Positions 2,790-33,359 of a stretch of DNA of 64,000 bases are shown here, piece by piece. Where the stretch lies: positions 97,140 through 161,139 of the forward strand of contig CAVOUE010000012.1 of assembly GCA_963699545.1 (NCBI GenBank), in the 5' to 3' direction. The stretch is from Nitrospirota bacterium (lineage in GTDB: Bacteria > Nitrospirota > Thermodesulfovibrionia > Thermodesulfovibrionales > UBA9159). A model generated the notes under the pieces. It was not told where the DNA came from. It was given only the letters and a program-made list of their open reading frames with translations, and made no database searches. Positions within the stretch are counted from its first letter, which is position 1; each line of letters begins with the position of its first letter. The position numbers and the translations under genes are program-made.

Positions 2790-3264
2790 GTCCGAGTTTC
2801 GTCAGGATGGTCCCGAGGAATCTGTTGACGGGGTTGCTCCTCTTCAGAAATGAGACCACCGGAGGCTTCCTGGAGGTCAGTTTGTCAAGTTCGTCAATGA
2901 TCGCCTGGTCTTTTTCATGGCTCAGTCCCTCCCTGAAGGTTCTTATGGCGTCATCTGTTTTCCCTGCATAGAGGTAAACCTTGCCCAGATTCAGATAGTG
3001 GAGGGGGTTTTGAGGCTCCCGCGCCTTTGCTTTTTCGCAGAGCGTAACCGCGAGCTGGAATTGTCCCCGTTCCTTTGCAATGCAGAGGGCCAGGTAACAG
3101 CAGTAGGCAGGTTTTTCATCTCTCTGGACCGCCTTCTCAAAAAGGGTAAGGGCGGTAAGGGTATCCCCCTGCGCAAGGGCCTTCAAACCGCTGGTGAAGA
3201 ATTTTTCTGCCTCAGTCTCCTGCATACAATCATTCAACTGCAGAGCGAGATATGCGCCACCCAT
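2782..3264 (-). CDS. Tetratricopeptide repeat protein (start may be 3225)
   Basis: TPR-like helices, e.g. HYLNLGKVYLYAGKTDDAIRTFREGL. Confidence 0.75.
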   Translation of the reverse strand: MGGAYLALQLNDCMQETEAEKFFTSGLKALAQGDTLTALTLFEKAVQRDEKPAYCCYLALCIAKERGQFQLAVTLCEKAKAREPQNPLHYLNLGKVYLYAGKTDDAIRTFREGLSHEKDQAIIDELDKLTSRKPPVVSFLKRSNPVNRFLGTILTKLGLR

Positions 3265-3300
3265 TTCTTGAGACGATTATTTCCGCCTTTCCCGTCCGCA

Positions 3301-4275
3301 TCAATACTTCATGATGTCGGTAAGGGCTTTTCTTATCCTCTCCACGGTGGGCATGTAATGGTCCTCAAGTCTCGGAAGGGGAAGGACCACATCATAGCTT
3401 GCCACCCGCGCCACGGGCGCCTTGAGAAAGAACATGGCATCCTCCGCGATGGTGGCCGCGAGTTCCGAGGCAAAACTTCCCACCTTGGGCGCCTCATTCA
3501 CGATCACGACCCTCCCGGTCTTCTTCGCTGACCCGAGGACCGTCTCTTCATCATATGGATTGAGGGTCATCAGGTCGATCACCTCAGCGTCAAACCCTTC
3601 CACTGCCTCCAGAGTCCTGTGAAACATGAACCCCCAGGAGATCACGGTCACATCCTTTCCTTCCTGGACTATCCGCGCCTTTTCGAGGGGTACGGCGTAT
3701 TCTCCTTCAGGCACGTCCTCCTTTACCAGACGGTAGAGCCTCGTGGACTCCAGAAATAACACAGGGTCGGGGTCTCTAATGGACGACAAGAGAAGCCCTT
3801 TTGCGTAATACGGCGATGACGGCATCACAACCTTTATGCCGGGCATGTGACAGAAGAGCGCTTCATTGCTTTCCGAGTGGTGTTCGGGGGCTTTAATACC
3901 CGCCCCGTAGGGCGTCCTTATGACCAGGGGGCAAGTATATCTTCCCCTTGAGCGCGAGCGTATCCTCGCAGCGTGGTTCGCTATCTGGTCCATGGCAGGA
4001 TAAATGAACCCCTCGAACTGTATCTCGGCAACGGGCTTTAGACCATACACCGCCATACCTATTGCAGCGCCCACGATGACCGACTCTGCAAGGGGGGTAT
4101 CAATGATACGCTCCGGTCCGAATTGGTTCAGAAGCCCTTCGGTGATCCTGAATACCCCGCCGTCTCTTCCCACGTCCTCACCGAGGATGACCACATCCTT
4201 GTCCCTCTGCATCTCTTCTTTCAGCGCAAGGTTGATCGCCTGCACCATGTTCATTTTTTGGGAGTTCTGGGGCAT
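3301..4275 (-). CDS. pdhB: Pyruvate/2-oxoacid dehydrogenase E1 beta subunit
   Basis: GEDVGRDGGVFR, DTPLAE, AEIQF and EHHSES motifs. Confidence 0.93.
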   Translation of the reverse strand: MPQNSQKMNMVQAINLALKEEMQRDKDVVILGEDVGRDGGVFRITEGLLNQFGPERIIDTPLAESVIVGAAIGMAVYGLKPVAEIQFEGFIYPAMDQIANHAARIRSRSRGRYTCPLVIRTPYGAGIKAPEHHSESNEALFCHMPGIKVVMPSSPYYAKGLLLSSIRDPDPVLFLESTRLYRLVKEDVPEGEYAVPLEKARIVQEGKDVTVISWGFMFHRTLEAVEGFDAEVIDLMTLNPYDEETVLGSAKKTGRVVIVNEAPKVGSFASELAATIAEDAMFFLKAPVARVASYDVVLPLPRLEDHYMPTVERIRKALTDIMKY

Positions 4276-21101: not shown

Positions 21102-23727
21102 TTAACCCCTCAGCCGCCTGACCCTCTCCCTCACTTCATCCGCGAAGAACTGATACTCATCCGTGCCTTCAGGCTTCCGGGAAAGATCGATCTCGTCCGG
21201 ATAAAGAGGTTTCCCGATGGTGAAGCGTATCTTAGAAAACTTTGGCCGGAGCGTGCCCCGGGGCAAGGCTTCAAAGGTCCCCTCTATCAACACAGGTACA
21301 ACGGGAATTTTGTGTTCCATCGCAAGGATCCCAATACCTTTCTTGAACTCCAGGAGACCCCCGTCAATCGACCTTCCTCCTTCGGGGAATATACAGAGTG
21401 CACGGTCCTTCTTCAGCACATAGGAAGAGAGTTGAAGGGCTTTGCTCAGGAAGGTTTCGGGATCGATGGGTATGACATGGGCAAGTCTCGCAAACAGGGA
21501 AGGCAGCCATCCCTGGAAGTATGTCTGGTAGCCCTGAAAATAGAGGTTCCTGTAGACAGCAAGGGGGACTGCCGCGCCAACCACAAATCCGTCCATATTG
21601 CTGCAATGATTCGGGGCGATGATAAACGGAAAAGCGGGTAGGTTCCCGATGCCCCTGGCTTCAAGCCTGAAGAACACCCTGAGGAATAATTTGAGAAGCT
21701 TGAGACATACGGCGCTGAATATCCATTCCACCCTCCCCTGATATAGCCCTATCTTCTTCCTTTCTTCCTCGGGTATCTCTGCAGCGAAAATATCTTCCCA
21801 GAGGGGCTTCCCGATGCCGGAGATCCCCAGTGCCTTGAACTCCTTTATCCTCTCAACAAGCTCTCCCACGGTCTGGACTTCTGATGCAAAGGTCTCGGGG
21901 AGTTTGAGGGAGAACGCTTTCTCCAGAGCGACAACAAGCTCTATCCTCTGGAGGGAATCGAGGCCCAGGTCAAGCTCGAGATTGTCTGATGAATGGACGG
22001 GCAACTCTTCCGACAAAAGAGACGTTATGCACCCCGCAACCACCCTCCCTGTTTTATCGCCGGTCAGGGTTTTATCTTCACCCCTTGCCCGCCGGCCTTC
22101 CCCTGCCATCCGACGTATGAGATCGCTGACCACATACCTCTTCAGCTTTCCCAGGGGTGTCCTCGGCAGAGGCTCCGACGAGAGGGTGAACCCCTTAAGT
22201 CTCATATAAGGAGGTAATTTCAGGGCAACACGGTTCATTGCCCATTTAAGGGAATCGGATATGTTGCCTATTCGCTCTTTCCTTGCACGGTCAATGTTCG
22301 GAACGATCAGACCGCGAAGGGATTCCACGACCCCTTCCTTTTCGATCCCGGTAACACATATTTCTTTGATCAGGGGAATCTTCAGGTATTCATTCTCCAC
22401 CTCTTCAGGATAAATGTTCTTCCCGGAGCTGAGAACGATCACTTCCTTCGCCCTGCCCGTGATGAAAAGATACTGTTCGTCATCCAGATATCCGAGGTCC
22501 CCGCTCATAAACCACCCGTCCTGCATCACCTGAGCAGTAGCCTCAGTTTTCCTGTAATAGCCCTTCATCACCATAGGCCCCTTAATGGCGATCTCTCCCT
22601 CTCCCGACTCGGACGGACGTACTATTTTGATCCCCACTGACGGGAGGGGTTTCCCGGCCGAGCCCGGCTTCCTTTTGTTCATGGGATTGAAGGTGACCAC
22701 AGGAGCGGTCTCTGTCAGGCCATATCCCTCAAGAACGGTAAATCCCAGGGCCTCAAGGTCCGTCATCAGTTGGGGGACAAGCCGCGCTCCGCCGCTGGCA
22801 AAGAATCTGAACTGTTCTCCAAAGGCCCTGTGTGCGGAACGGAATATGAGCTTTCCGGCATTCATACCTGTCCTCTTTCTTGCGCCGCCGCACATTTTTA
22901 ACAGAAGGAACAGAACTGACGAAACAACCGCCTGGCAGCTCCTTGAACTTTCTCAGAATACCGTTCCGTATGAGTTCAAGGAGCTGAGGCACCGCCACCA
23001 GAACGGTCACTCCTTTTTCCTTCATGGTGGAAATAAGATCAGGGCCTTTCATCCCCATGGGATAGGTTATGGTTGCGCCGAGGAAGAGGGGAACAAGAAA
23101 TGTGCACATGAAGGCATACGTATGATGAAGGGGGAGGATGGACAATACACTGTCTTCATGGGTCAGCAGTCCTGTATCTATTAAGGCCTCCGCGTCGGAG
23201 CAGAAATTCCTGTGAGTGAGCATCACTCCCTTTGGTGCGCCCGTAGTGCCGGAGGTATATACGATGGATGCCAGGTCATCGTCCGAGAGCTCCGGAAAGT
23301 GTTCAGCTTCCGGGGTAGCGCAGATCTCCTCAAACCCGGGGGAGTCAAAGTTGACCTTCCCCGCAGATCCTTTTATGTTCAGCCCCGTCTTTTCACTGTG
23401 GAATACAAGAACCGTGTCCGAATCGTCGAGAAGAACCTCTATTTCATCAGGGCCCAGCTGTGCGTCTATGGGAACAGCTATACCTCCAGCCATGACTGCT
23501 GCAAGATACGATGCGCACCACTCGTATCTGTTTTCAGAGACAACGGCGACCCTGTCTCCTTTCTTTATTCCCGAGTTCATTAAGTGGGCCGCGATGCCTT
23601 CCGTCTTTCGAAGGAACTCGCCATAGGTCATTGTTCGCCATGATTGGTCAAAGTAATTGAAGGCGGTGTTGTCCCTGTATTTCTTTGCAGCAGCCAGGAA
23701 CAAGCTGATGATTGTGTTATTTGTCAT
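21102..23727 (-). CDS. Acyl-CoA synthetase + carrier domain + PlsC acyltransferase fusion, frameshift near 22930
   Basis: YTSGTTGAPKG, GYGLTE, DLGLDSL (phosphopantetheine Ser), NHCSNMD and FPEG. Confidence 0.88.
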
Positions 23728-26026: not shown

Positions 26027-28150
26027 ATGAGCTTCTGGAGCGCGATACAGAGAGATTATAAGGCCGTTTTCAGGAACGACCCTGCGGCGCGGAACGGAGT
26101 GGAGGTGGTCCTTGCCTATCCGGGCTTCCATGCCATCTTCCTCCACAGGATCAACCATGTCCTCTGGAACCTCGGGATACCGTTCGTCCCCCGGCTTTTC
26201 TCCCATATCGCGCGGTTCCTTACGGGTATCGAAATCCATCCTGCAGCGAAGATCGCGCCCGGTTTTTTCATTGACCACGGCATGGGTGTCGTGATAGGAG
26301 AAACCTCAGAGATCGGAGAGGACTGCCTCCTGTATCAGGGGGTTACCCTTGGAGGAACAGGGAAGGAAAAAGGGAAGCGTCACCCCACCCTCGGCAAGAA
26401 CGTCGTGGTCGGTACCGGCGCCAAGATCCTGGGCGCGATCACCATCGGGAACTCTGCCAAGATAGGGGCTAACGCCGTTGTTCTTGATTCCGTGCCCGAC
26501 TACGCCATTGTGGTGGGTGTTCCGGGAAAGGTCATCAAGAAGAAGGTTCTCCGGATGATGGACGAAGGTGCGGTCGAAAGCCTTTCCCGCGTGCACCTTC
26601 CGGACCCTGTGGAAGAAAAGTTCAGGGAAATGGAAAAATATATCGCCGGACTCGAAAAGAGGATGGAGACACTGGAAGGAAAGGGAGGGAGGATGCGAGT
26701 CTACAACACCCTGAAAGGGAACAAGGAAGAACTGATTCCCCTCAGTACGGGCAGGATCGGGATGTATGCCTGCGGGGTCACGGTGTATGATCTCTGCCAC
26801 ATCGGTCATGCCCGCAGCGCCATCGTCTTCGACGTGATGCGGAGATACCTTGCTTTCAAAGGCTTTGAGGTCAAGTATATAAGGAATTTCACCGACATTG
26901 ACGACAAGATTATCAACAGGGCCAAACAGGAAGGTATTTCCTGGGATGAGGTTGCGAGGAAATACACGGCGGAATATTACCTGGATATGGACCGGCTCGG
27001 CGTGGGAAGAGCGGATATGGAGCCAAAGGCCACGGAGCATATACCGGAGATTATAAACATCGTCAAAGGTCTTGTGGAGAAGGGATATGCGTATGCCGTC
27101 GATGGCGATGTCTACTTCGAGGTCAGGAAATTCTCAGATTACGGAAAGCTCTCGAAGAGGGATATAGAGGATATGCTGGCCGGTGCCCGGGTGGAAGTTG
27201 ATGAGAGGAAACAGAATCCCATGGACTTTGCCCTCTGGAAGGCATCAAAAGAAGGGGAGCCGTCGTGGAACAGCCCGTGGGGTCCGGGAAGGCCGGGATG
27301 GCATATCGAATGCACTGCCATGTCCATAAAGCATCTCGGTGAAAGCTTCGATATTCACGGAGGAGGGGCGGATCTGATCTTCCCTCACCATGAGAACGAG
27401 CTGGCCCAATCCGAAGCGTATACCGGTAAGCCATTTGTGAGATACTGGATTCACAATGGCTTCATCACCATCGATAAAGAGAAGATGTCAAAGTCCCTCG
27501 GGAATTTCTTTACCATCCGGGAGATCCTGGACACGTTCGACCCCGAAGTGGTGAGGTTCTTTCTCCTCTCGACACATTACCGGAGCCCTATCGAATTTTC
27601 GGACGAGTCCCTGAGGGAGGCGGAACTGTCCATCGACCGGTATTATTCCACGGTGGTGAGGATGGAAGATTTCCTGAAAGAAGCGCAGAACAGGGAGAAA
27701 CAGACCGGGGAAGAACGATCACTGGAGGAGACCCTTGGCGCGTTCATGAACAGATTTCAGGAAGCGATGGATGACGATTTCAATACCGCCCTTGCCCTTG
27801 GTCACCTCTTTGAGCTGATCCGGGAGGTGAACAGGTATCTGGATTCCAAACCTTCAGGCCAGAATGCGAAGGAGTTCATAGCAAAAGCAAAAGACCTGCT
27901 GCGGAAGGCAGGGGGCATTCTCAATATCTTCAACAAGCTGCCCGAAGAATGGAACGACGCCCTGATGCAGACCAAGAAGATCCCCTACACGAAGCCCGAG
28001 ATCCTTGACAAGATCAGACAGAGGCAGGAAGCAAGGCAGAAAAAGGACTGGTCAGCTGCGGATGCCGTAAGAAAAGAACTGGAGGCACAGGGGGTAATCC
28101 TTGAAGACAAAAGGGACGGCACCTCCTGGAAGGTGAAAATCGGCAAGTAG
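26027..28150 (+). CDS. cysE-cysS: In-frame fusion of serine O-acetyltransferase and cysteine--tRNA ligase
   Basis: TGIEIHP, DHGMGVVIGET and KRHPT in the N-terminal part; CGVTVY, HIGH, GWHIEC and KMSKS in the C-terminal part. Confidence 0.92.
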   Translation: MSFWSAIQRDYKAVFRNDPAARNGVEVVLAYPGFHAIFLHRINHVLWNLGIPFVPRLFSHIARFLTGIEIHPAAKIAPGFFIDHGMGVVIGETSEIGEDCLLYQGVTLGGTGKEKGKRHPTLGKNVVVGTGAKILGAITIGNSAKIGANAVVLDSVPDYAIVVGVPGKVIKKKVLRMMDEGAVESLSRVHLPDPVEEKFREMEKYIAGLEKRMETLEGKGGRMRVYNTLKGNKEELIPLSTGRIGMYACGVTVYDLCHIGHARSAIVFDVMRRYLAFKGFEVKYIRNFTDIDDKIINRAKQEGISWDEVARKYTAEYYLDMDRLGVGRADMEPKATEHIPEIINIVKGLVEKGYAYAVDGDVYFEVRKFSDYGKLSKRDIEDMLAGARVEVDERKQNPMDFALWKASKEGEPSWNSPWGPGRPGWHIECTAMSIKHLGESFDIHGGGADLIFPHHENELAQSEAYTGKPFVRYWIHNGFITIDKEKMSKSLGNFFTIREILDTFDPEVVRFFLLSTHYRSPIEFSDESLREAELSIDRYYSTVVRMEDFLKEAQNREKQTGEERSLEETLGAFMNRFQEAMDDDFNTALALGHLFELIREVNRYLDSKPSGQNAKEFIAKAKDLLRKAGGILNIFNKLPEEWNDALMQTKKIPYTKPEILDKIRQRQEARQKKDWSAADAVRKELEAQGVILEDKRDGTSWKVKIGK

Positions 28151-28224
28151 GGGGCTTCGATTCCCATCGGTTTGTTTTTGTTGAAATACCCTGAAATGCT
28201 CTCCGCATACGCAATAGCTGCAAT

Positions 28225-28431
28225 TCAAAATACCGTCGAAACAAACTGGTCCATCCTCGTCGCCGAACCCGTTCGTATCGACTTCCCCACTTCAACTGCC
28301 ATTATAATTTCCTGCTCATCAATCCCATTTTCGCGGGCCCTGCCCACGTGGTGTTCCACTCACCCCTGACAGTTTGAAGCAACAGATGCTCCGACAGCGA
28401 TCAATGACTTGATTTTTTCATCAAGACCCAT
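28225..28431 (-). CDS. AhpD/carboxymuconolactone decarboxylase-family selenoprotein (CxxU), 68 aa
   Basis: GGAGG SD; MGLDEKIKSLIAVGASVASNCQG-UGA(28360-62)-VEHHVGRARENGIDEQEI; SECIS-like hairpin 28332-28348. Confidence 0.88.
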
Positions 28432-28500
28432 AATGTATTCCTCCTTCCAGGCTTGGGGACATTAATGTGCGATCAACCATACCGATAAACTATCGGCACG

Positions 28501-28719
28501 TTACAGTGTTCATGAACCTCCGTATCCAATTGTCACCTTGTCTCCTTCCACGATGACCGGAACCCTTGCAGCGCCTTTCGTGTATTCAAGCATCTCCTTC
28601 AGTTTTGCCCTGTCCGACAAGACCTCGATATAGACTGCGGTATCGCCAAAGGCCGACCTGGCCGCTTGACTGAAGGGTCATCCCTTCTTGCCAAAGATTT
28701 TTATCACTGTTTCCGTCAT
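28501..28719 (-). CDS. UXX-star-type glutaredoxin-like selenoprotein with two Sec, 72 aa
   Basis: FGKKG-UGA(28678-80)-PFS...RVPVIVEGDKVTIGYGGS-UGA(28510-12)-TL-TAA; hairpins 28651-28663 and 28478-28500. Confidence 0.88.
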
Positions 28720-28770
28720 CCCATTACCTCCCTTTCAGTTTATAGCTATGGCGCAAGGCCCGATACTACG

Positions 28771-29307
28771 TTACTCTATAAGGAGAAGTGCGAAGTAGTT
28801 CCATTTGCCGTATGTCTCTTTTTTCGTGTCGACCTCAAAGCCGTTGGCCCGCGCTGTTTTGAAGACATCTATGCCGCAGGCTTCCATAAGGGGCCTGATC
28901 CTGAGTTTTTTCTGGTCACCAGTCTGAGACTCACCCTGAGTCTCCGCCTCACCAGAGGGTCACGTTGCCCCTTCGGGCCCTGAAGAGAGAGCAGTCATCG
29001 CGAATGCCTTGTAAAAGCCCATCTGGTATGCCTCGCCTTCAAGCCTCACGGCGGTCTCGGTGAGGGTCTTCCCCTTGGAGCCGTTCATGAGGATCGCTTT
29101 GCTGTATTCCTTCATCATCTTTTTTGTGCTGTCCGCATCGGGAGCACAGGGGGGATGATAGGCGTCCTTACCATGGAATGCACAGCCGTAAACGCACTTC
29201 CACCTCACCCACTCCTCTACGACAACAGCACTGGTATTTATGACCCTGGCTTTCTCGGCCCCAAGCTCAAGGGACCTTTTTAAGAGCTGGTCTGTTTTAT
29301 CTTCCAT
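28771..29307 (-). CDS. DUF2284-like metal-binding selenoprotein, 178 aa
   Basis: WVRWKCVYGC...PPCAP...GPEGAT-UGA(28960-62)...RPLMEACGIDVFKTARANG; the family motif lies after the UGA; hairpin 28926-28944. Confidence 0.85.
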
Positions 29308-29335
29308 TCCATCACCTCCTTCACGTGTGGTGGCT

Positions 29336-30271
29336 TCATTTATGTTTAAGCGTATACTCTCTGCCGTCCCGGTTACGACCTCGGCAGGATGTCCGTCCTC
29401 CTGAAAAATACGGACACCGTTCTTCCCTGCACCCGTGGGGATGCTTGACGCCATGATTGCAAATTATTGATTGGCTTAGGGGCAGCACGAGTCCGAGGCT
29501 TTCCCCAAGGTAATTCACCGCCGCATCAAGGGATGTCCTGACATACGCCTTACAGCAGCTCGGGCCTGTGAGATCGGTTATCGCCCTCGCAACCCTTGTC
29601 ACCGCCTCCATGGTGATCCTCTGCTCCTCATCTTTACCGCATTTCGAACCCGTGAGGACTGCAAAACAGGCCCCCATGGCCGGGGCGATGCCGCAGACGC
29701 CGCTCAGGCCGCAATAGCCGCCGTGGGCCTGCTTCCTTGTGCGTTTAAAGACCTCCTTGATCTCTTCATCCGTCATGCCCTTCACGCCTTCGTTCTTTAT
29801 CGCGGCCATAAGTGCCCCGCCGGCAATGTACGCATGCTGGCAGCCGAGCATCGGAAGTCCCGGGAAACTCATGGCAATTTCGGCTATCTCGAAGGGATTG
29901 CTTGATGACGTCGAAAATATAGTATCTTCTATGATCCTCATCGAATCCCTGTTGTGACAGAGGTCGCAGATATAGTGGCCGCTTAGGCAACTTATATGGC
30001 CGTGCTCAAGCTTGCCACAGTATATGCACTTCAGCTCCTCTGCCTTGTCGTGATACGTCAGGGGCGTGCCGCAGACCATACAGTGCTCGGTTGCTTTAGT
30101 CTGAACTTCTACGACAGGTTTATCCCCCTGGTTCCCGCTTTCGCAAAGCCCTTCTATGGTCCCGGTTAACGACTTTGAAGCGCTGTTTTGATGCCCACCA
30201 GCATCATCGCCCGGCTCTCAATCTCAGCTGCCATCTTCTCTCAATTCTTTCCTCTCTTTTTCCTCTGCCAT
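29336..30271 (-). CDS. DUF5714-like Cys-rich protein with an N-terminal UxU motif, 311 aa
   Basis: AAGGAGG SD; MAEEKERKELREDGS-UGA-D-UGA-EPG, in frame with CMVCG, CIYCG, GHYICDLCH, GGYCG and GPSCCK; hairpin 30189-30206. Confidence 0.82.
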
Positions 30272-30283
30272 TGTTTCCTCCTT

Positions 30284-30577
30284 TCATCGGAACAAGAGGG
30301 TGTATCCCACCAGCCCCAGGCTCAAGGCAGTCGTCACGTAGAGCATTCTCTTTCCCCACGGGTCGGCAGATCCCCTCTTCCGGAAAAATGTCCTGTGGTA
30401 CGCCATTCCCAAAAAAGCAAGGGTTACGAGCACGAAAATCCATCGGTAGCTCACCATCCAGACGCCTAGGGTCAGGCTTCCCAGGCCCAAACTGGCCAGG
30501 ATCAGGGGAAGCTGTCAGGCGAAAAAAGCTACCGCTGAAGAAATGACAGCACCGCTCTTAAAAAATGACGCCTTCAT
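30284..30577 (-). CDS. MerT-like membrane transporter selenoprotein, 97 aa
   Basis: MKASFFKSGAVISSAVAFFA-UGA(30515-17)-QLPLILASLGLG...YRWIF, three TM segments; the UGA sits at the MerT CC site; hairpin 30484-30497. Confidence 0.8.
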
Positions 30578-30618
30578 GAAATTCTCCCTTCACCACTTGA
30601 AACAATTACTCGAATCTC

Positions 30619-31122
30619 TTATGTGCGCTTTCGGGTTTCTTTTCTCGGTCCCCACGCCTGCATCTTTATCTTTCCCTCCCGAGCGAGTTTGCCAAGGATA
30701 AAGAGGACGCTCTCACGATTCAGCTTAAAGTATGAAGCTACCTCGTCAGGGTCCACTTTTTCTCTGTCGGTGAGAAATACGACTATCTCATTCTCGATCT
30801 CTCTCATCCAGTCATTAAAGAGTCCCCGCAGCTCCGGGGTCGAGTACGTGGCCAGCTCATAGGAATGGCTCACCGCCGATATGACCTCCTTGCTCATCTC
30901 CACCGGATTCACCCCTGAATCCGAACACTCCTTAATTCATTCATCCACCAGCGACGCCAATTGTCGCCCCTTTTTCCTGCCGGCAGCCACGCTCCGGAGC
31001 ATTTCTTCCTTATCAGCTTCGTTCAGGTCCTTTAAGAGCGTTGTGACAAGGCTGCTCAGGACCTCTCTCTTTTCGGTGGAACTCATACCGGTCATGACCT
31101 TTTCGATCGTGCCCTTTTCCAA
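30619..31122 (-). CDS. Unknown selenoprotein (UxxxC) with a wHTH-like C-terminus, about 167 aa
   Basis: ORFs 30937..31131 and 30619..30912 are in frame, separated only by UGA 30937-39; strong hairpin 30903-30924; TTG start after GGAGG. Confidence 0.78.
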
Positions 31123-31127
31123 TGAAA

Positions 31128-31562
31128 TCACCTCCTCTTTTCAGCATTACGATGAATGTTGTCCTTCGGTTTCCTCATTATAGGAGTCCGTTTGATCTGC
31201 CTCTCCACTTTCCACATTTTTTTGACGACAGGTTCGGGCTTTCCGTTTTTATTCGGTTTTTTATCATTTAATTGAGAAAGATCAGCGAGAATGTCCAGAA
31301 GCGAAGGGTCAGACAGACTGTAATAGATAAAAGGACCCTTCCTTTCCGTCCGCACGATGTCGGCCTCGCGCATGATCCTCAGGTGAAAAGAGACCAGGGT
31401 TTGAGAGAGGCCGGTTGTCCTCACAAGCTCCGTTACCGACCGGGATTCCTTACCGACGGACATAACCATGTCCAAACGGTTCCTATCCCCAAGAGCCTTG
31501 ATGAAGCGGGCAAGTGTATCCATGTCGTTGATATTCCAGCCGTTTACCATATCAAAATCCAT
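31128..31562 (-). CDS. ArsR/SmtB-family regulator heading the selenoprotein operon
   Basis: KALGDRNRL, SQTLVSFHL and RKGPFIYYSL. Confidence 0.9.
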   Translation of the reverse strand: MDFDMVNGWNINDMDTLARFIKALGDRNRLDMVMSVGKESRSVTELVRTTGLSQTLVSFHLRIMREADIVRTERKGPFIYYSLSDPSLLDILADLSQLNDKKPNKNGKPEPVVKKMWKVERQIKRTPIMRKPKDNIHRNAEKRR

Positions 31563-31565
31563 TCA

Positions 31566-31612
31566 TATGAGTAGATACTCATAGTGTATAAGAAGAAATT
31601 CATGATTGTCAA
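31566..31612 (-). promoter_or_regulatory. Promoter with an ArsR-type inverted-repeat operator
   Basis: TTGACA-18nt-TACACT, then the perfect palindrome TATGAGTA-TC-TACTCATA (31566-31583). Confidence 0.75.
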
Positions 31613-31833
31613 GCGGGAAAAATTATCTTCTCTACGGTCTTCGGGTATCCTCTCTCAGAGGAAATTGAACCTGTTTCGGTAATGCTCGCTCTCGTCGATG
31701 ATCCCTTTGTTGTAGTGCTCCTGCCAGTTTCACCGTTCGGTGTCAAGGGAGAGTAAGGAACAGCTTCTCCGACCCTCAAGGGAGATATTTACAGAAAGAA
31801 TTATCAATCCTGGAGCAATGATTTCTTATTACG

Positions 31834-33097
31834 TTAGAATTCATACCTCACTTGAAGATAAATATTGTCGTTCTTATCGAGCTGCCCGAACTGGCTCCCC
31901 TGGTTGCCGCCCCCGAAGATGTTTGCCCCAATGGCTGACCAGACGTGGTCTGAAAAGTTATATTTGATTTCAGGATTGAGCATATAGTCCCCAGCGGAAG
32001 GGCTGTAAAAAGCGAAGAAGGACAGCCTCAGTGTCTGATGCATCAGGAATTGAGTCAGTCGAACGGTGGTAAGTTGGTAAAGCTGGCTTTCCTGCGGAAA
32101 CCCTTGAGGAAGATTTTTTGTATAATTTGAATGGTTGTGCATGTACTCTCCGTAATATTGGACGCCTACAGTAAAATCTTCCCATATCTGCCTCTGGTAG
32201 CCGATGAGGAACCTTGTCTGGGAATTCGGGATCATGGGGTTTGTACCGCTTCTGTCTTCCCTTGAATCATAATATCCCGCTTCAAGACTCAGGACACCAT
32301 CCAGCGCTCGCCCCTGAAGGCTCGCGCCGTATTCCGACAGCGTCGGGATAAAAGAGTGTCAGTTTGGTCGGCATCGTTGCATTGTCGGGCATCATCGAAG
32401 GTTGCCTGAAGAATCCGCGATACGCATAGAACGATACGTCAAAGCCTGCTATGTCACGGTAGGCCCTGAGAGCAATCTCTGTATTTCCCAGGGTTACCGG
32501 CGGTTTCACCTTTTCTCTATCCGTGACACCTGGCATAGGGTCAAACATCCAGAACCTGTTCGGGGAAGGGAAAGTATTAGGTGTAAAAAAGGGGATTGCA
32601 ATCACCTCGAAAGACGCAAAGCCCGGATAAATACCAATCTTCGCTCCGTCTATTCCCTTCTTTAGATATTCCAGCGGCCTGCCTGAAAAGAAAGCTTCAT
32701 AGTCTTTTGGAAACACGTCGTTGATAAATATGAGGTCTCCCACGCCCCAGGTTATGACCTGTCTTCCGACCCGTCCGTCCCATTTCGAGGAAGTGAAATC
32801 AAGATATCCTTCCCTCAATTCAGATTTTGGTTTCTCATCGATGTGATCATAGAACCCGTCCGCCTTAATAAAAATACGGAAAGGGTCTTTGGATGCGTCA
32901 AGCTTTAGTTGAAGCCTTTCCTCCGCCAGTTTGAAATCTGCCCCGTCCGGATTGGAAGACGCCGCGTCCGCAGAATAGTTGCCCTGCAAAAAACCGTGCA
33001 GGGAAATATCCGATGCGGCAGCGTTCGATGAAGACAGTATGCAGGCGGCAAATAAAAAGAGTCCCGCCGGAAACGGGCTACATTTAAGATTGCGCAT
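31834..33097 (-). CDS. Outer-membrane beta-barrel protein (DUF1302-like), frameshift near 32335
   Basis: Signal peptide, LREGYLD, GRQVITWG, C-terminal YLQVRYEF. Confidence 0.75.
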
Positions 33098-33191
33098 CTG
33101 CCGTACGACCCTGGAGGCATGCTCACTCGATCCATTTTTTCGGAGGCTGTTTGAGATACCTTTCAGAAAAGAGATGGTCATCAATTCTAAT

Positions 33192-33359
33192 TTACACTTG
33201 ACCGCTTCCCTTACATCTGGAACAGAGATTCTTGCCATGTCCTTCACTTTCGAGTTTCGAACACCAAACACACTTTTGGCCAAACCTGTTCTTTCCTGTA
33301 CCGCTGCAATGCGGGCAACGTCCGGTACCGCCACAGTCAGGGCACTTTTTTTTCTCCAT
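33192..33359 (-). CDS. Small DnaJ-type Cys-rich zinc-finger protein (55 aa)
   Basis: GGAGGT SD; CPDCGGTG, CPHCSGTG, CVWC, CSRCKGSG; below the ORF-track cutoff. Confidence 0.75.
   Translation of the reverse strand: MEKKKCPDCGGTGRCPHCSGTGKNRFGQKCVWCSKLESEGHGKNLCSRCKGSGQV

Follow-up and report, generated by a model that had tools for sequence, protein, structure and literature searches.

A predicted selenoprotein operon with an ArsR/SmtB-family regulator gene in an uncultured Nitrospirota bacterium

Introduction

The mer operon (MerR, MerT, MerP, and MerA) imports Hg(II) and hands it off between pairs of cysteines. Here we describe a locus that shares part of this layout and in which in-frame TGA codons abound. 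It belongs to an uncultured sediment bacterium of the phylum Nitrospirota (assembly GCA_963699545.1, 87% complete) and lies on a 64,000-nucleotide (nt) stretch of contig CAVOUE010000012.1, which we refer to as the window. On the minus strand of the window, from position 31612 to position 28225, a gene for an ArsR-family regulator comes first and is followed by co-directional genes with in-frame TGA codons.

Operons with many selenoprotein genes have been recognised recently. In its part on these systems, a 2026 review (PMC13188914) names the SAO (selenocysteine-assisted organometallic) operon of 2023 (Haft and Gwadz) as well as Tso (“three selenoprotein operon”) of 2025, and for larger selenoprotein operons it refers to Haft and Tolstoy 2025. 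The review also lists the families MbdU, UXX-star family 1, TsoA, and TsoR and attributes them to Haft and Tolstoy 2025. The initial annotation of our locus, made from the DNA letters, knew of no described operon with such a composition. That the composition is new is not supported, as curated NCBIfam models exist for MbdU, UXX-star family 1, TsoA, and TsoR.

Our analysis points to a single autoregulated operon with five selenoprotein genes and eight selenocysteine (Sec) codons, the products of which would probably hand a soft, thiophilic metal or metalloid on along a chain. Taken as a whole, we consider this reading reasonably probable.

Results

Co-directional genes behind a single promoter

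Translation of the minus strand with TGA read as Sec gave eight in-frame TGA codons in ~3.4 kilobases (kb), all of them read through to a later stop, which is the number that the initial annotation had counted. A scan of positions 28000 to 31800 found one promoter-like site only, at 31612-31583. Strong Shine-Dalgarno sequences stand before every gene after that of the regulator, with spacers of 12-69 nt, and the stop codon of the regulator gene overlaps or almost touches the start of the TsoA-like gene. The flanking genes in the window are unrelated to those of the locus. We read the locus as one operon because of the single promoter-like site, the Shine-Dalgarno sequence in front of each gene, and a gene order that recurs in related loci.

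A palindrome beside the -10 box (Table 1) is presumably bound by the regulator. Words related to ATATGAG...CTCATATGA were found together with a TTGACA box at the same place upstream of the regulator gene in four related loci (L012, L015, L017, and L019). The translation, the promoter scan, and these four loci bear out the first description of the locus as a series of co-directional genes behind arsR and a palindrome.

With the search for related loci we obtained 10 loci; they stem from other metagenome-assembled genomes that bear the labels Nitrospirae/Nitrospirales, Nitrospira sp., Syntrophales, Desulfobulbaceae, and Deltaproteobacteria. Further homologous loci came from a family search across 301 sampled genomes of the phylum. 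L012 has the full order of regulator, TsoA-like, MerT-like, MbdU, UXX-star, and AhpD-like genes, with a shortened MerT-like gene. Within the reach of the contigs, the core of regulator, TsoA-like, (MerT-like), and MbdU genes is present in L013, L015-L017, L019, L021, L033, L034, and L036. The UXX-star and AhpD-like genes together follow MbdU in L012 and L017 only, and in L013 the AhpD-like gene does so alone. The flanks differ among the loci. Fused MbdU proteins above the model cut-off occurred in 5 of the 301 sampled genomes; the genome of the window is among the 301, and its MbdU is split and falls below the cut-off.

The Desulfobulbaceae locus L019 has two further features (L019:966-1889 and 3117-3928, minus strand). 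Its MbdU-type cluster adjoins, on the opposite strand, a second regulator paired with a TsoA that has the canonical L-U-L-A-E-C motif, and a selD-like frame, recognised by eye, lies ~3 kb from the cluster.

In-frame TGA as a predicted selenocysteine codon

All eight TGA positions are also TGA in homologous loci of other genomes, with the protein conserved on both sides, and for four of the eight, with seven compared in this respect, we found a Cys counterpart. The first of these is U16 of MbdU, which stands opposite Cys in nine homologues (these read C-U). The Sec of the DUF2284 domain is matched by the first Cys of C-S-L-C-E-S-C in a protein of 515 amino acids (aa) encoded by L012 (76-1623, plus strand), in which a methyltransferase-like part is fused to a Cys-type DUF2284 and whose gene lies 3 kb upstream of the operon counterpart. 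For U21 of the MerT-like protein the counterpart is the second Cys in the near-invariant CC pair of Pfam MerT proteins, and U24 of the AhpD-like protein is matched by Cys in a C-Q-P-C paralogue of 53% identity that contig C6 encodes. For U65 of the TsoA-like protein, U18 of MbdU, and U70 of the UXX-star protein, we saw only TGA in relatives, or W in three public calls that are taken up below. The alignment of Cys with UGA that the initial annotation had named as a check was thus seen at half of the positions, with TGA kept at all eight. These alignments suggest that Sec sits where relatives have metal-binding or redox Cys.

A hairpin follows every one of the eight codons. Its stem starts 10-18 nt and its G-containing loop 18-24 nt downstream of the TGA, so that folding upheld the geometry first described for the locus, that of the selenocysteine insertion sequence (SECIS). 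By the folding energy of nt +6 to +45, each of the eight falls within the best 3-9% of all TGA trinucleotides in the window (2534 in number). No such hairpin stands behind the three TGAs used as real stops (-0.6, -8.7, and -6.2 kcal/mol, versus -12.9 to -21.0 kcal/mol).

The hairpins recur among homologues. After removal of seven false motif hits, a perfect stem of at least 5 base pairs (bp) was counted in 5/6 TsoA-type, 5/5 MerT-type, 10/11 MbdU N-terminal, 7/8 MbdU C-terminal, and 4/4 AhpD-type sequences, and at the first and second UXX-star sites in 2/2 and 3/3, respectively; in three MbdU N-terminal, one MbdU C-terminal, and two MerT rows the hairpin picked was off the canonical distance. 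Compensatory stem changes were seen among homologues (GAUGCC/GGCAUC versus CCUGCC/GGCAGG; CCGAUA/UAUCGG versus CCGAUG/CAUCGG), and the hairpin behind the U-D-U motif of MbdU has compensatory stems in L016, L017, L019, and L021. An Rfam scan gave no matches. RNAalifold returned no consensus for 12 N-terminal MbdU hairpin stretches (one row misplaced), since the register of the hairpin differs between groups.

Contig C3 of the genome carries selA (607 bits), selB (302 bits), and a tRNA-Sec gene with anticodon tca. The conservation of TGA, the hairpins with compensatory changes, the four Cys/Sec pairs, and the presence of selA, selB, and tRNA-Sec support the reading of these TGAs as Sec codons and of the genes as predicted selenoprotein genes.

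Public gene calling fragments such genes, as the initial annotation had expected. Relatives of the TsoA-like protein appear as C-terminal pieces of ~97 aa and relatives of MbdU as pieces of ~372 aa; the latter start past the first TGA and stop at the final one. Public protein sets hold such genes almost solely in shortened form.

Table 1. Predicted features of the locus, in window coordinates
Feature	Position	Strand	Remarks
Sigma-70-like promoter	31583-31612	-	TTGACA, 18 nt, TACACT
Operator-like palindrome	31566-31583	.	TATGAGTA-nn-TACTCATA, perfect 8-2-8; abuts -10 box, 3 nt before regulator ATG
ArsR/SmtB-family regulator (TsoR-like), 144 aa	31128-31562	-	HTH_5 match, no Cys
TsoA-like selenoprotein, ~167-170 aa	30619-31131	-	Sec65 at 30937-30939, D-E-U-I-K-E-C; C-terminal winged helix
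Hairpin, TsoA-like Sec65	30903-30924	-	9-bp stem, loop GGGG; kept in 5/6 homologous sequences
MerT-family membrane selenoprotein, 97 aa	30284-30577	-	Sec21 at 30515-30517; real stop TGA 30284-30286
Hairpin, MerT-like Sec21	30481-30500	-	Found in 5/5 homologues, register variable
MbdU N-terminal part as assembled (DUF5714)	29336-30271	-	Sec16 at 30224-30226, Sec18 at 30218-30220
Single hairpin shared by both MbdU U-D-U TGAs	30189-30206	-	Loop GGUG, 24 nt after first and 18 nt after second TGA
Extra base splitting MbdU	29397	.	One C of plus-strand CC; left out in contigs of runs X3, X4
MbdU C-terminal part (DUF2284)	28771-29454	-	Sec at 28960-28962 (U116 of part), G-A-T-U-P-S-G-E; stop TAA 28771-28773
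Hairpin, DUF2284 Sec	28926-28944	-	8-bp stem, loop GGG
UXX-star family 1 glutaredoxin-like selenoprotein, 72 aa	28501-28719	-	Sec14 at 28678-28680 (G-U-P-F-S), Sec70 at 28510-28512 (G-G-S-U-T-L-stop)
Hairpin, UXX-star Sec14	28651-28663	-	
Hairpin, UXX-star Sec70	28478-28500	-	Within 3' untranslated part
AhpD-like (CMD family) selenoprotein, 68 aa	28225-28431	-	Sec24 at 28360-28362 (C-Q-G-U); real stop TGA 28225-28227
Hairpin, AhpD-like Sec24	28332-28348	-	

Converging on the end of the operon is a 707-aa frame (26027-28150, plus strand) in which an N-terminal part with hexapeptide repeats (Pfam Hexapep), resembling serine acetyltransferase by eye, precedes a complete cysteinyl-tRNA synthetase (CysS).

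Domain assignments of the encoded proteins

The regulator matched Pfam HTH_5 with 42.1 bits (cut-off 22). Among NCBIfam models, TsoR (NF045707) is the closest, and the score of 89.1 bits does not reach the cut-off of that model (115). With 72.8 bits the protein exceeded the cut-off (55 bits) of NF033788, the general model for the ArsR/SmtB subfamily. We call the protein TsoR-like.

A similar result was obtained for the product of the second gene. Its closest model is “LULAXC motif selenoprotein TsoA” (NF045695), with 99.1 bits against a cut-off of 170, and of the LULAxC motif the U-x3-C spacing alone is retained. The C-terminal ~50 residues resemble a winged helix (Foldseek probability 0.97-0.99, E-value 0.07-0.5), and a FeoC-like Pfam domain was found in several clusters of its homologues. 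Translation could begin at GTG 31131 or at TTG 31122, of which TTG is better spaced from the Shine-Dalgarno sequence.

The Sec of the MerT-like protein lies in the first hydrophobic segment (F-A-U-Q-L-P-L). A profile of its subfamily gathered 582 representatives at E <= 0.001; seven of the 10 representatives scanned scored over the Pfam MerT gathering score, and two had a fused HMA domain. The pair in the first segment is A-U in the window protein and C-U in four homologues, in alignment with the near-invariant CC. A tblastn search of plasmids with this protein gave chance-level matches only.

MbdU, which we treat as one protein for reasons given below, begins with a tail that carries a Sec motif, followed by zinc-ribbon-like Cys motifs, DUF5714 (160 bits in Pfam), a variable linker, and DUF2284 (95.5 bits) with one Sec. 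The N-terminal ~60 residues, which carry the Sec motif, were modelled with a predicted local distance difference test score (pLDDT) below 50. A Foldseek search of the PDB with the MbdU model found nothing at E <= 0.001, the best matches being nitroreductase-like folds at E 0.25-0.5, and searching PDB sequences by profile yielded a single match, at chance level.

The glutaredoxin (Grx)-like protein scored over the cut-off of UXX-star family 1 (NF041114; 91.5 versus 72 bits) and ends in the U-x-x-stop motif of that family. Its Sec14 is in the CxxC position, and Sec70 stands three residues ahead of the C-terminal end. The AhpD-like protein matched the CMD family (PF02627) with 48.4 bits (cut-off 23) and has a C-x-x-U motif. 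Profile matches in Pfam and NCBIfam thus agree with the domain calls of the initial annotation for the MerT-like, DUF5714, DUF2284, Grx-like, and AhpD-like proteins.

The Cys-type paralogue of the AhpD-like protein is encoded next to hgcAB. At C6:74607-76190 (L045:1306-3079), hgcA (388 bits, cut-off 275) and hgcB are followed by the gene for this 83-aa protein. Among 20 further hgcAB loci examined in the phylum, none was found to have such a neighbour.

Proposed function and its alternatives

In the mechanism that we propose, the MerT-like membrane protein would take a thiophilic ion into the cell, with Hg(II) and As(III) as candidate substrates. The two small proteins (Grx-like and AhpD-like) and the tail of MbdU would carry the ion or keep the sites reduced, and the Cys/Sec-rich domains of MbdU would bind or transform it. 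Such a relay would be laid out like that of the mer operon, with selenols replacing the hand-off thiols. Until the substrate is sensed, possibly via the TsoA-like protein, the repressor would keep the promoter closed, and each Sec codon would be decoded through the hairpin just downstream by SelA, SelB, and tRNA-Sec.

We infer this role in metal or metalloid handling from the MerT relatives, the DUF2284 domain, the likeness to ArsM fusions, the family of the regulator, and a statement of the review. DUF2284 is named a “predicted metal-binding protein” in Pfam. On the NCBIfam models for arsenite methyltransferase fusions (NF041536 and NF041537), the DUF2284 part scored 307.7 bits and the AhpD part 30.4 bits. 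According to PMC13188914, most transporter-linked selenoproteins of this kind are implicated in Hg or As resistance.

It could be speculated that the operon is a selenium-dependent counterpart of mer in an hgcAB-bearing anaerobe, where a MerT-family importer with its selenol within the membrane would feed Hg(II) or some other soft ion to selenol carriers and a triple-Sec MbdU, and where the TsoA-like protein, in place of the Cys-less repressor, would sense the signal as a translationally coupled Sec co-sensor equipped with a winged helix. In this specific form the idea is a long shot.

Several observations weigh against the relay, or against single parts of it. The MerT-like protein scored below the curated cut-offs (PF02411, 17.8 versus 32.9 bits; NF033560, 33.4 versus 130 bits), and the cytoplasmic Cys pair is absent from it and from the four Sec-bearing homologues, while it is present in six of 11 others. 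No MerA over the cut-off was found in the profile search of the genome. The Grx-like and AhpD-like proteins would suit a purely redox role equally well. The structure models are weak, with pLDDT 65.8 for the TsoA-like protein (helical, with U and C one turn apart) and a mean of 57.6 for MbdU (L012 copy, 11-row alignment). Of the Sec machinery that the initial annotation expected, selA, selB, and tRNA-Sec are accounted for; selD was not found in the 87%-complete assembly, where the best match looked by eye like thiamine-monophosphate kinase, and it was over the cut-off, with one in-frame TGA, in 19 of 20 relatives, including both genomes of the same genus. In addition, selB is present in two frames (C3:318143-319991), owing to one surplus base within a short stretch of G or C.

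The distribution of hgcA belongs with these points. By hand tally, hgcA was present in 39 of the 53 genomes with a DUF5714-type match among the 301 sampled genomes, and in three of the six genomes with a fused MbdU. Within the main family the rate was 35/42 with a DUF5714-type match versus 18/22 without, and because of these similar rates the association of hgcA with DUF5714 or MbdU reflects kinship only. The co-occurrence with hgcAB proposed at the outset showed no excess over phylogeny.

A further point concerns the regulator. Metal sensors of the ArsR/SmtB family have metal-ligand sites of Cys or His, for example of the alpha-3 and alpha-5 types. In the regulator of the window there is no Cys at all, and five homologues share no invariant Cys and one invariant His. 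Because the protein is Cys-less and its homologues keep no metal-ligand Cys, it is not a thiolate metal sensor of the classical kind. As the repressor is thiol-free and the next gene encodes a Sec-Cys pair together with a winged helix, the TsoA-like protein may be the sensor for the repressor.

The main alternative to the metal relay is a selenol-based redox or detoxification set that responds to peroxide, disulfide, or polysulfide stress and carries no metal. In that case reduction would fall to the Grx-like and AhpD-like proteins, MbdU would be a redox protein with Fe-S or Zn, and the membrane protein would relay thiols or selenols across the membrane. The glutaredoxin and CMD/AhpD domains both have redox folds, the regulator is without metal-ligand Cys, and within the window the operon has no linked mer, ars, or hgc gene; moreover, the clustering of Prx-like/AhpD-like selenoproteins in operons is called probably redox-related in PMC13188914. 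Yet the relatives of the membrane protein belong to the MerT family, some with HMA domains, and the Sec-bearing DUF2284 domain is almost as near to the ArsM-fusion model as to MbdU (307.7 versus 333.7 bits). The U-P-F-S motif of the UXX-star protein, too, is without the resolving Cys of a CxxC oxidoreductase. On this evidence we regard a purely redox set, with the roles just given, as unlikely.

Another possibility is that the operon serves organometal or organometalloid chemistry, in which As, Hg, Se, or Te would be methylated or demethylated, and not uptake or sequestration. On this view, MbdU and the AhpD-like protein would represent, as separate proteins, the accessory domains found elsewhere in fusion with ArsM-type methyltransferases. 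Both proteins indeed match the NCBIfam ArsM/DUF2284 and ArsM/AhpD fusion models, the methyltransferase-DUF2284 fusion of L012 is encoded 3 kb upstream of the operon there, and frames of ~530 aa that, as this fusion does, match the DUF2284 part of the MbdU model only were found in 13 genomes of the phylum sample. The genome of the window has hgcA and ArsM-like frames with in-frame TGA, which are unlinked to the operon, and the Cys paralogue of the AhpD-like protein directly follows hgcAB on C6. However, no methyltransferase gene is in or beside the operon within the window, the adjacency of hgcAB and AhpD was seen at 0/20 other loci, and MbdU is not associated with hgcA beyond kinship. We consider this chemistry quite unlikely as the function of the operon and retain the metal or metalloid relay as the preferred reading.

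The two ArsM-type frames with in-frame TGA lie at C3:680332-681123 and C5:391361-392161 and scored 322 bits (over the cut-off) and 186 bits. One TAG was also counted inside each of them. These frames may encode arsenite methyltransferase selenoproteins.

A probable assembly indel in the MbdU gene

Six consecutive selenoprotein genes had been claimed for the locus. This number did not stand, as DUF5714 and DUF2284 belong to one gene, which gives five genes and six open reading frames (ORFs) as assembled. The two domains share one frame in 10 of 10 full-length relatives (L012-L017, L020, L033, L034, and L036). When the two pieces of the window were scored separately against the MbdU model (NF045648, 468 positions), the DUF5714 part reached 410.2 bits at profile positions 5-270 and the DUF2284 part 333.7 bits at positions 292-468; the cut-off for the whole protein is 600 bits, and fused relatives scored 723-751 bits.

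Base 29397 was absent from both covering contigs of other runs (X3 and X4, from different studies, 95-98% alike); the contigs compared are from related strains, and none of them covers the whole stretch. Once the base is omitted, DUF5714 and DUF2284 lie in one chain with Sec, as in MbdU, encoded by a single frame of 499 codons with Sec at positions 16, 18, and 437. With the base in place, the DUF5714 frame shifts and reaches a false TGA stop at 29336-29338. In the nearest public cluster (P0202, 95% identity) both Pfam domains are present.

Other genes are broken in the same assembly. Besides selB, an outer-membrane-like gene (31834-33334, minus strand; frames read by hand) is split by one added base, here too within a short G/C run, and an AMP-binding/acyltransferase gene (21102-23727, minus strand) appears as two overlapping ORFs. 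Together with MbdU, these breaks suggest systematic indel errors in the assembly. Because the contigs of the other runs are without the base and other genes are broken in the same assembly, the split at 29397 is most likely an assembly indel. Single-base indels break genes here, selB included, and the annotation of this assembly needs care.

It is very unlikely that DUF5714 and DUF2284 are truly two genes in this organism, separated by a recent and real frameshift, so that six selenoprotein ORFs are expressed. Such an arrangement would have some precedent in stand-alone DUF5714 selenoproteins that end just past C-P-Y-F (L038, L040, L041, and L044), and the DUF2284 frame has an ATG at 29307 as a plausible start. 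Set against this are the two contigs of other runs, 95-98% alike, that are without the extra base, the fused state of the nearest cluster at 95% identity, and the three further broken genes, in two of which (selB and the outer-membrane-like gene) the extra base was located.

Stand-alone DUF5714 genes of another kind were seen in L042 and L043 (genomes G189 and G186). They have no N-terminal Sec tail and continue past C-P-Y-Y to C-H-(T/S)-U-K-P, and they may represent a variant of the family with a C-terminal Sec.

Alternative readings of the TGA codons

In three public calls of relatives (P0008, P0014, and P0053), W stands exactly at the TGA position of the window, probably because gene callers read TGA as Trp on those contigs. 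Apart from these calls, little speaks for the view that the TGAs are stops in decayed genes, or codons for Trp or Gly under an altered code, and we find it scarcely credible: the genes of the MerT-like and AhpD-like proteins themselves end in TGA, long frames of housekeeping genes (the 707-aa CysS fusion, for example) stay open under table 11, the in-frame TGAs match Cys of relatives and each has its downstream hairpin, and tRNA-Sec, selA, and selB are all present.

Comparison with known systems

As far as Tso is described in the review, our operon resembles it in having an ArsR/SmtB regulator followed at once by a small winged-helix selenoprotein with U-x3-C and then by further selenoprotein genes. 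It differs in that the regulator and the TsoA-like protein fall below the model cut-offs and in that the partners are a MerT-like protein and MbdU. No TsoB over the cut-off was found in the 87%-complete genome (best 80.4 versus 805 bits), and TsoC had no match there, a weak negative since the search matched in no control genome either.

MbdU itself (NF045648) agrees with the catalogued family, with DUF5714 and DUF2284 in one chain, Sec in the N-terminal tail, and Sec in DUF2284. The window and L012 have U-D-U where relatives have C-U, which brings the number of Sec residues to three, and the gene of the window is split by one base in the assembly.

Like the mer operon, ours would be controlled by a metalloregulator-family protein and encodes a small MerT-family protein with paired Cys/Sec in the first membrane segment; it also encodes soluble proteins whose paired thiol/selenol sites lie on tails that were not confidently modelled. 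Unlike mer, its regulator is of the ArsR and not the MerR type, MerP and HMA domains are missing from the operon, and the genome has no MerA over the cut-off. The cytoplasmic Cys pair of MerT is missing as well, and Sec replaces Cys of mer.

SAO, which has six selenoprotein genes in the review's description, is likewise an operon of many selenoproteins with transport components and suspected Sec metal ligands. In SAO, however, transport is by an ABC transporter, with SaoB/X/P/C/T, and none of these matched the proteins of the window in the NCBIfam scan. With the ArsM fusions (NF041536 and NF041537) the operon shares a closely similar Sec-bearing DUF2284 module and an AhpD-like module; here no methyltransferase domain is encoded, and the modules are free-standing or fused to DUF5714.

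The operon offers a compact and testable set of a promoter with its putative operator, a thiol-free regulator, one membrane protein, and four soluble proteins. Such a set is suited to ask what selenols do beyond thiols in the handling of metals and metalloids under sulfidic conditions.

Judged by its sequence, the operon adds a member to catalogued families, with local peculiarities. These include paralogues of TsoR and TsoA below the cut-offs and no TsoB or TsoC found, a regulator devoid of Cys, A-U in place of C-U in the membrane protein, and an MbdU with three Sec and a U-D-U motif. With eight predicted Sec codons in ~3.4 kb, it is a dense selenoprotein operon in a different phylum-level setting.

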